A stretch of 18,551 bases of DNA. Origin: a virus. The position numbers and the translations under genes are program-made. Location of the stretch: the UHGV virus genome UHGV-0121047; one strand, 5' to 3'. The notes under the pieces are model-generated. The model searched no databases and was not told the origin of the DNA. It saw only the letters and a list, made by a program, of their open reading frames with translations. The stretch's first letter is position 1. Every line of letters starts with the position of its first letter. Shown in pieces: positions 8,833 to 9,204 of the stretch.

Positions 8833-9204
8833 ATGAAAAACAGAACAAACAAAGGCCAGTTTAAAAAAGGCCAGTCTGGAAACCCATCTGGAAGACCGAA
8901 AGGCTCACGTAACAAAAGCTCTCTCGTAAAAGCTCAACTGACCATTGATAATTCTGCTGAGTTTGCTGCAAAGTTGTTTGAGGCGATTGTTACAAGGGAC
9001 GCTGCTAAGCTTGCAGAGTTCGGGTTAAACACAGATGACGTAACCATCAAGAGCATGATTGAGGTCGGTAAAACCATCTTTACTCACTCAGCAGGTGAGA
9101 TGAAAGCACTTGCAGCAGACACTAAGAAGGTTCCTGATAATGCTGGTCAACCTCAGACAGATAACAAACCAACGTTCTCTGCTGTAGCGACTCTCAAAAA
9201 ATAA
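8833..9204 (+). CDS. hypothetical protein with N-terminal GQSGNPSGRPKGSRNK motif (AT-hook-like; resembles DUF5681-type phage proteins), possible DNA-binding protein (123 aa)
   Basis: ATG at 8833; N-terminus MKNRTNKGQFKKGQSGNPSGRPKGSRNK is basic with a GRP core; family assignment is from memory and not verified. Confidence 0.65.
   Translation: MKNRTNKGQFKKGQSGNPSGRPKGSRNKSSLVKAQLTIDNSAEFAAKLFEAIVTRDAAKLAEFGLNTDDVTIKSMIEVGKTIFTHSAGEMKALAADTKKVPDNAGQPQTDNKPTFSAVATLKK

Follow-up and report, generated by a model that had tools for sequence, protein, structure and literature searches.

How do Felix O1-type phages recognise the DNA that they package? The Felix O1 genome paper found a homologue of the large terminase subunit (TerL) only, without a small terminase (TerS), and the BASEL annotation of phage Bas63 likewise lists no TerS. 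The packaging-recognition subunit of these phages has been reported missing since the genome paper. Published Bal31 digestion and run-off sequencing of the Felix O1-like phage UAB_Phi87 gave exact 608-bp direct terminal repeats (PMC4837284), which implies that packaging is initiated site-specifically. The question is raised here by one small gene in a stretch of viral DNA of 18,551 nucleotides (UHGV-0121047; the whole analysed stretch is called the window below). The original prediction proposed that this gene might encode a DNA-binding or small-terminase-like factor or, equally, a regulator that binds a repeat array at the left end.

The window derives from a Felix O1-type myovirus of the genus Felixounavirus, subfamily Ounavirinae, and 253 phage records match its region 8600–9300 at 80–99% nucleotide identity. 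The gene and its ribosome-binding site, the latter read from the sequence, are as follows.

8820–8825, plus strand: Shine-Dalgarno sequence AAGAGG, 7 nt 5' of the ATG of the 8833 gene.
8833–9204, plus strand: DUF5681 gene (Pfam PF18932; PHROG 4114), candidate TerS; an ORF with an ATG start encoding 123 amino acids.

The product begins MKNRTNKGQFKKGQSGNPSGRPKGSRNK, and the basic GRPKG N-terminus is present, with residues 7–28 reading KGQFKKGQSGNPSGRPKGSRNK as first noted. The prediction's link to DUF5681 was borne out by an HMM search, with a Pfam match of 54.1 bits against a gathering threshold of 27.5 (E=2.3e-14) spanning residues 7–78 and model positions 2–71 of 77. PHROG 4114 ("unknown function") is matched along the full length (E=4e-74). 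Homologues of the translated ORF occur in 297 phage records at 52–98% amino-acid identity, those in Erwinia, Pectobacterium, Hafnia and Yersinia phages being at 52–60%. Thus, the two family matches and the breadth of homologues identify a real gene rather than a chance ORF. Its orthologues include Felix O1 ORF41 (NP_944856), AYO145A gp045 and Bas63 gp129 (bas63_0129). RefSeq names those of Felix O1 and AYO145A "DUF5681 domain-containing protein", while most GenBank records read "hypothetical protein". The family assignment is therefore already public, while a functional assignment as small terminase appears to be new. The literature search returned no paper in which a small terminase is tied to DUF5681 (PF18932) or to an AT-hook. 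The statement that relatives are annotated as small terminase did not hold, since none of them bears that name in its source record, in PHROGs or in NCBIfam. Every PHROG matched by family members carries "unknown function", and nine members gave zero matches in NCBIfam (E≤0.1).

By sequence and predicted structure, the protein divides into a basic arm, a helical body and a conserved tail.

8851–8916, plus strand: basic Gly/Pro-rich N-terminal arm, residues 7–28, AT-hook-like and predicted to be disordered (from conservation, a match to 2EZD and the AF2 model).
8914–9123, plus strand: helical core, residues 28–97, proposed oligomerisation body (AF2, pLDDT 80–87).
9169–9189, plus strand: C-terminal linear motif P-T-F-S-A-V-A, residues 113–119, proposed TerL-docking tail (from conservation; it follows a disordered linker).

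The net charge is +10 over residues 1–33, the remainder is mildly acidic, and the whole protein has a pI of 9.95. In the AF2 model (43 homologues, mean pLDDT 73), residues 1–27 have no secondary structure; helices at 28–54, 57–61 and 72–97 are followed by a disordered tail, with pLDDT below 50 at residues 100–106. Conservation peaks at both ends of the protein, and the helical middle is more variable. Within residues 10–39, K12, G13, N17, P18, G20, R21, P22, G24 and N27 are invariant across the family alignments. The DUF5681 motif KGxSGNPxGRPKGSxN is present; in one alignment S25 is also invariant and S15, G16 and K23 are nearly so, the set of conserved core residues differing slightly among alignments. 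In the tail, P113 and A119 are invariant and F115 and V118 nearly invariant across the Ounavirinae-type alignment, which includes a marine relative (P0044).

The likeness of the arm to an AT-hook, claimed in the original prediction, stands as a motif. The top PDB match of the DUF5681 profile is the second AT-hook of HMGA1 in its DNA-bound form (HMG-I/Y; 2EZD, E=0.081, 16.7 bits), where PnGRPKGSkN in the profile aligns with PRGRPKGSKN. The GRPKGSRNK of the protein itself departs from the HMGA1 hook at a single position (R here, K in HMGA1). The two thus share P-x-G-R-P-K-G-S-K/R-N-K, basic flanks and predicted disorder (2EZD/2EZE). They differ in that the R-G-R-P core is incomplete in the phage protein (S-G-R-P-K-G-S-R-N-K), which keeps G-R-P and the basic flanks but has Ser for the first Arg, a position that is variable across the family. 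Furthermore, Pfam AT_hook (PF02178) gives no match to the protein at E≤1. Given this, the marginal E value and the unconserved first Arg, "AT-hook-like" is a fair description of the motif rather than a demonstrated family membership. As a bacterial virus is also a different context from that of HMGA1, the resemblance may be convergent.

Searches against known small terminases, the check proposed with the original prediction, matched no recognised TerS family. These covered Pfam (Terminase_2/4/5, Nu1, gp16 and others; E≤1), the TerS entries of PHROGs and NCBIfam (E≤0.1) and PDB sequences (E≤10). A single-sequence search of the PDB with the protein gave no matches, and Foldseek comparison of its AF2 model with the PDB and BFVD returned other DUF5681 proteins only.

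The small-terminase idea, unsupported by any family match, gains strong positional support from distant relatives. We took 78 distant DUF5681-motif loci from IMG/VR and located the DUF5681 ORF and its neighbours in each. The DUF5681 ORFs are typically 105–120 amino acids long, and the next ORF in nearly every locus is one of 390–490 amino acids that usually overlaps the DUF5681 ORF, typically by 4–30 nt. Among the 63 loci with a complete downstream ORF, that ORF is a TerL in 59. These TerLs come from at least three families (Terminase_3, 47; a T7-type cluster with an RNaseH domain, 7; Terminase_6, 4; phrog_2, 1). One of the four other downstream ORFs is an HNH endonuclease; genes for such enzymes are often inserted in terminase operons.

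The same adjacency is seen on a metagenome contig, in a bacterial prophage-like locus (in the order ParB-methylase, DUF5681, TerL) and in cultured phages. In Leptospira phage LE4, Acetobacter phage phiAX1 and Nonlabens phage P12024L, a DUF5681 gene still annotated as "hypothetical" stands directly before TerL. In Salmonella phage STGO-35-1, whose genome has been re-oriented to open at TerL, an unannotated DUF5681 gene is the last before TerL on the circular map. The 69 ORFs directly upstream of DUF5681 encode ParB_N, DNA methylase, Mom, TET/JBP, glycosyltransferase or queuosine proteins, with no recognised TerS family among their 25 most frequent Pfam hits. Jersey gp01 ("terminase"), considered as a TerS-annotated DUF5681 protein, was rejected as a different protein without the motif, and 9NA has no same-strand gene upstream of TerL.

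At E≤1e-3, an exhaustive search with the DUF5681 HMM found 13,535 sequence clusters. Among these, the best 150 are almost all single-module proteins of 100–170 amino acids, a size usual for a TerS and a range that includes the protein studied here. The ten longest of the 150 have tandem DUF5681 duplications or no Pfam domain, with one exception, a transposase-containing protein whose match is confined to the AT-hook-like stretch. On the combined neighbour evidence, DUF5681 looks like a small-terminase family that has gone unrecognised, as far as gene order and sequence can tell.

How far does this evidence extend to the Felix-type protein? It belongs to the family by its above-threshold match, its motif and its size, but it differs from most sampled members in lying apart from TerL, and its C-terminal 90 residues have no profile similarity to those of TerL-adjacent members. 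In hhalign, Ounavirinae-type and TerL-adjacent proteins align with 99% probability over residues 5–40 only; with the N-terminus removed, the C-terminal parts show no similarity (0.3% probability). The AF2 model of one TerL-adjacent relative (P0051) combines one helix with a beta-hairpin and two further helices, against a long all-helical hairpin here, and neither model significantly matches any solved structure, TerS included. In a search for bridging relatives of the Ounavirinae type beside TerL, the candidates P0077, P0062 and P0043 occurred on short contigs only, and the TerL of locus L087 is not close to that of Felix O1. The shared element may be only a portable DNA-binding arm, judging from these profiles and models, so that the positional evidence transfers imperfectly to the Felix-type protein.

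These differences count against a TerS and favour the main alternative, which we consider possible but unlikely: a small architectural or regulatory HMGA-like DNA-binding protein outside the terminase, sharing only its arm with true small terminases. Such a protein might regulate or organise transcription on AT-rich phage DNA, or might bind the left-end repeat array for replication or end protection. Yet nearly all sampled arm-bearing proteins occupy the TerS slot, and the sampled family contains tandem duplications only, with no fusions to regulator domains.

The gene order in the window bears on both explanations.

9286–15719, plus strand: accessory island lying between the DUF5681 gene and TerL, with the Ro60-like gene, tRNAs, and DUF7338 and DUF7217 ORFs.
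9286–10701, plus strand: Ro60-like vWA gene, following the DUF5681 gene.
10867–15719, plus strand: tRNA array, interspersed with the DUF7338 and DUF7217 ORFs.
15942–16142, plus strand: acidic 66-amino-acid ORF (phrog_4397; pI 4.4, net charge −7), immediately upstream of TerL.
16149–17765, plus strand: TerL, the proposed partner (Terminase_6N, E=2e-43; Terminase_6C, E=4e-33; phrog_979).

The probable true start of TerL is the ATG at 16164, homologues being annotated at 1602 nt. An Rfam scan of the window found tRNAs only. TerL begins 6.9 kb downstream of the DUF5681 gene on the same strand, in agreement with the roughly 7 kb first noted, and the adjacency typical of small terminases is therefore absent here. 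This distance speaks against the TerS reading and for an architectural or regulatory protein.

We find that the distance varies among related phages. In complete genomes, the portal gene is next after TerL. Erwinia phage phiEa104 has the order DUF5681, 26 tRNAs, three small ORFs, TerL and portal, without the Ro60-like gene, and the Felix-type order is also found in Yersinia phage P778. Marine Tara contigs carry a full-length DUF5681 relative at 36% identity; on these, lysis genes run leftward, while DUF5681, 8 tRNAs, an HNH-like ORF, TerL, portal, protease and capsid genes run rightward. The gap between DUF5681 and TerL is 1.9–2.5 kb in these contigs, and the Ro60-like gene is again absent. 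The order DUF5681, tRNA island, small ORF, TerL, portal is thus ancient within these phages, and the orders in phiEa104, P778 and the marine relatives identify the spacer as a variable accessory island. That island, with its Ro60-like anti-defence gene, tRNAs and small ORFs, would account for a TerS gene that does not stand beside TerL.

The position directly before TerL is instead held by the acidic ORF. This ORF could be the real TerS or a TerL cofactor, or TerL could package alone, leaving DUF5681 with some other and possibly dispensable role; we judge this improbable. Its position is canonical for a TerS, which weighs against assigning that role to DUF5681. It has its own PHROG and is kept across three genera, at 30–36% identity in phiEa104 and P778. 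The BASEL record of Bas63 also opens at this ORF, under a rule of starting at the small-terminase gene or its operon. Yet the protein is just 60–72 amino acids long, is very acidic and lacks any DNA-binding feature or family link to a terminase, and in the marine relative the ORF in its place (113 amino acids) matches only an HNH endonuclease-like PHROG. With regard to dispensability, the authors of the PhageMaP essentiality work on Bas63 caution that trans-complementation can make terminase genes appear non-essential in their pooled assay.

The genes that follow DUF5681 offer another explanation, in which its product has an RNA- or tRNA-related function as partner to the Ro60-like protein and the tRNA island of the phage, and its basic arm binds RNA. 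In Felixounavirus the Ro60-like gene comes directly after the DUF5681 gene, with the tRNA array behind it. In addition, the Bas63 orthologue of the Ro60-like gene (gp130) is a demonstrated antagonist of the Ppl defence system, and this activity may involve tRNA-like RNAs. We nevertheless regard this as very improbable: phiEa104 and the marine relatives retain DUF5681 without the Ro60-like gene, most DUF5681 phages have TerL next door in place of any tRNA or Ro60 association, and a further promoter-like site separates the two genes in the window.

Upstream of the gene, the control region contains two features.

8683–8709, plus strand: promoter-like site, homologue of Felix O1 P41 (TTGACA-N15-TGTAGG here, TTGACA-N15-TATAGG in Felix O1).
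8765–8784, no strand assigned: inverted repeat AGATATC-N6-GATATCT in the 5' leader.

The AYO145A record annotates a promoter at the P41-homologous site, and the region is nearly invariant in four Felixounavirus genomes; our own sigma-70 scan gave this site no score. The GATATC palindromes noted beside the promoter are real (8766–8771 and 8778–8783) and form the middle of a longer, imperfect palindrome, at about 8732–8822, with an RNA fold of −28.4 kcal/mol (z=−2.5). They are genus-specific, being absent from phiEa104 and P778, and the idea of an operator conserved across the subfamily was accordingly rejected.

A gene standing alone between two promoter-like sites, with a divergent control region and a conserved palindromic leader, is what an architectural or regulatory protein might be expected to have, and no mechanism of temporal transcription control is known for Felix O1. 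However, the P41-like site is the beginning of a rightward transcription unit (genes 41–79), and published work describes these Felix O1 genes as one unit, with ORF41 first, that includes the packaging and morphogenesis genes. In the same literature, expression of ORF41, ORF42 and ORF52 (TerL) peaks at 25 min. The gene thus heads the packaging and morphogenesis unit and is timed with TerL rather than with early genes, which argues against a regulator. Felix O1 gp41 was reported missing from the virion proteome. In virions of STGO-35-1, the DUF5681 protein was weakly detected, by 2 peptides, which is atypical for a TerS and counts against that reading.

The proposed DNA target lies at the left end of the window.

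461–1033, no strand assigned: inferred direct terminal repeat (DTR); the "DTR" feature of UAB_69 maps here.
748–1023, plus strand: phased TGTTAR array of 15 sites in the right half of the DTR.

The placement of the DTR agrees with other records. The repeat_region of Citrobacter phage HP1 (1–570, 570 bp) begins at window position 463, as do the records of NBEco005 and I14.1, each of which has two matching places. The DTR sits in a 1.6-kb ORF-free region where transcription converges, and its boundaries are the inverted pair TAGCCCCCTTAAC / GTTAAGGGCTA.

The phased repeat array described in the original prediction, at 748–1022, is real. Its 15 plus-strand TGTTAR sites have a best period of 10.3 bp (Rayleigh R=0.83), a value that none of 5000 sets of random positions attained. 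The window contains 56 copies of TGTTAR, where 35.6±6.3 would be expected; 22 of these lie within 461–1033, where about one is expected (an enrichment of ~20-fold), and three inverted copies mark the left edge of the DTR at 469–496. The equivalent ORF-free region of phiEa104, a phage of another genus, has 25 copies where ~1 is expected (25-fold), at spacings of 10–11 and 20 bp, and this region is not among the megablast matches of the window's first 1,700 bases. An array on one helix face at the genome end fits the target of a multimeric packaging-recognition protein, and we infer that the DUF5681 product would be the protein that binds it. As the array lies inside the DTR, the packaging-relevant DNA, the two alternatives first proposed for this gene, a TerS-like factor and a binder of the left-end array, are probably a single hypothesis. 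An architectural or regulatory role for DUF5681 would leave a phage with exact DTR ends lacking any TerS.

The explanation that we favour, at roughly even confidence, is that the 8833–9204 product is the TerS of Felix O1-type phages, or an equivalent recognition subunit for packaging initiation, with a displaced gene and an AT-hook-like arm. The DNA binding, oligomerisation, TerL binding and DNA target that we infer for it would fit together as follows. The disordered basic arm (residues 7–28, ...GNPSGRPKGSRNK) would bind DNA through its minor groove, as an AT-hook does. The helical core (residues 28–97) would oligomerise, so that several arms would be presented together. The oligomer would engage the phased TGTTAR sites within the DTR on replicated concatemers, and the C-terminal PTFSAVA tail would recruit TerL. 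TerL would then cut at the repeat boundaries and begin packaging.

The proposed subunit resembles known small terminases (T7 gp18, lambda Nu1, SPP1 G1P, P22 gp3 and the NV1 TerS, 7JOQ) in being small and in joining a putative DNA-binding N-terminus to a helical middle part and a conserved, flexible tail, an architecture that is established for TerS proteins in general. Like the TerS of phages with exact DTRs (e.g., T7 gp18), it is a non-virion protein encoded upstream of TerL and portal in a late or packaging unit. It differs in belonging to no recognised TerS family, in having no significant fold similarity to one, and in the split of its gene from TerL by a tRNA and accessory island. Furthermore, it would contact DNA by an unstructured AT-hook-like arm rather than by a helix-turn-helix.

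A wider proposal is possible but on balance doubtful: that DUF5681 as a whole is a large unrecognised class of TerS (more than 13,000 clusters) that reads its sites by an AT-hook-like arm instead of a helix-turn-helix, the Felix-type oligomer being placed on phased TGTTAR sites and its gene having been pulled 2–7 kb from TerL. Displacement of the gene by a tRNA and anti-defence island would explain the seeming lack of a TerS in these phages since 2010.

A classical phage of diagnostics and biocontrol, Felix O1 has several hundred sequenced relatives, which find wide use in phage therapy and food safety. Assignment of its TerS would complete the packaging machinery of Felix O1-type phages and define a cis-acting site in the terminal repeat, and a defined packaging site would be useful for engineering, in vitro packaging and the assessment of transduction risk. 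The assignment would moreover supply a function for a Pfam domain with thousands of members that annotation pipelines now leave as "hypothetical". If true, the reading of helically phased sites by a TerS with an AT-hook-like arm would add a new mode of packaging-site recognition.

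The window opens with a stretch free of ORFs that contains a putative direct terminal repeat (DTR):

1-1621, ORF-free region of 1.6 kb
461-1033, putative DTR, inside the ORF-free region

The hexamer TGTTAR is enriched approximately 20-fold in the putative DTR, where its sites are phased with a period of 10.3 bp; copies in inverted orientation are found at 469-496. The sequences at the two DTR boundaries, TAGCCCCCTTAAC and GTTAAGGGCTA, form an inverted pair. The Erwinia phage phiEa104 shows a 25-fold enrichment of this hexamer in its corresponding region (L088:4097-5525). Outside the TGTTAR array, the ORF-free region also holds further repeated words, at 580-690 and 1250-1440: GGGGCTATA[AC]AG, CTATAGAG, and CTTAAAAG / CTTATAAG. 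The 5' leader of the DUF5681 gene contains, at 8793-8825, related CTTAAAAG and CTTATAAGAGG words.

That leader also carries a palindrome:

8732-8822, long imperfect palindrome, 5' leader of the DUF5681 gene

The palindrome is centered on AGATATC-N6-GATATCT and ends only a few bases from the Shine-Dalgarno sequence; its RNA has a folding energy of -28.4 kcal/mol (z = -2.5). The intergenic region containing it is nearly invariant among the four Felixounavirus genomes compared, but phiEa104 and the Yersinia phage P778 lack the GATATC pair. Across the window, GATATC is over-represented, with 11 occurrences versus 3.2 expected.

Between the DUF5681 gene and the large terminase gene (TerL) lie the following features:

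9286-10701, + strand, DUF2828/DUF7788 vWA protein, 471 aa, Ro60-like (phrog_850, "RNA-binding protein")
10867-15719, tRNA array (ARAGORN and Rfam)
15942-16142, + strand, 66-aa acidic ORF, pI 4.4 (phrog_4397), directly upstream of TerL

The Ro60-like gene is missing in phiEa104 and the marine relatives, and is thus an optional insert. Its orthologue in phage Bas63, gp130, reportedly counteracts the Ppl defence system. Within the tRNA array, ARAGORN and Rfam agree on the number of tRNAs, 23, but not on the set: 11463-11545 and 12462-12540 are called by Rfam only, and 11123-11199 (Met) and 11370-11457 (Tyr) by ARAGORN only, giving a union of 25 tRNA-like genes.

The 66-aa ORF is kept in phiEa104 and P778 at 30-36% identity. 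Its slot in Ounavirinae is occupied in two marine Tara contigs by another ORF:

L097:4643-4984 and L098:6503-6844, HNH endonuclease-like ORF, immediately upstream of TerL

This marine ORF has two CxxC pairs and matches phrog_2255 (E = 1e-5).

The mechanical starts of ORFs 14748-15545 and 16149-17765 (TerL) are probably too far upstream. Since the called GTG at 14748 falls within tRNA-Phe (14719-14794) and annotated homologues of the first ORF are 735 nt long, the evidence points to a start at ATG 14811. Likewise, the 1602-nt length of annotated TerL homologues points to ATG 16164 rather than TTG 16149.

Members of the DUF5681 family include tandem duplications, with two modules per polypeptide in P0068, P0083, P0091, and P0134 (224-282 aa). 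Among the distant IMG/VR loci (L010-L087), the gene immediately upstream of the DUF5681-TerL pair very often encodes a DNA-modification enzyme; the kinds found are ParB_N-methylase fusions, Mom, TET/JBP with glycosyltransferases, and queuosine-pathway genes.
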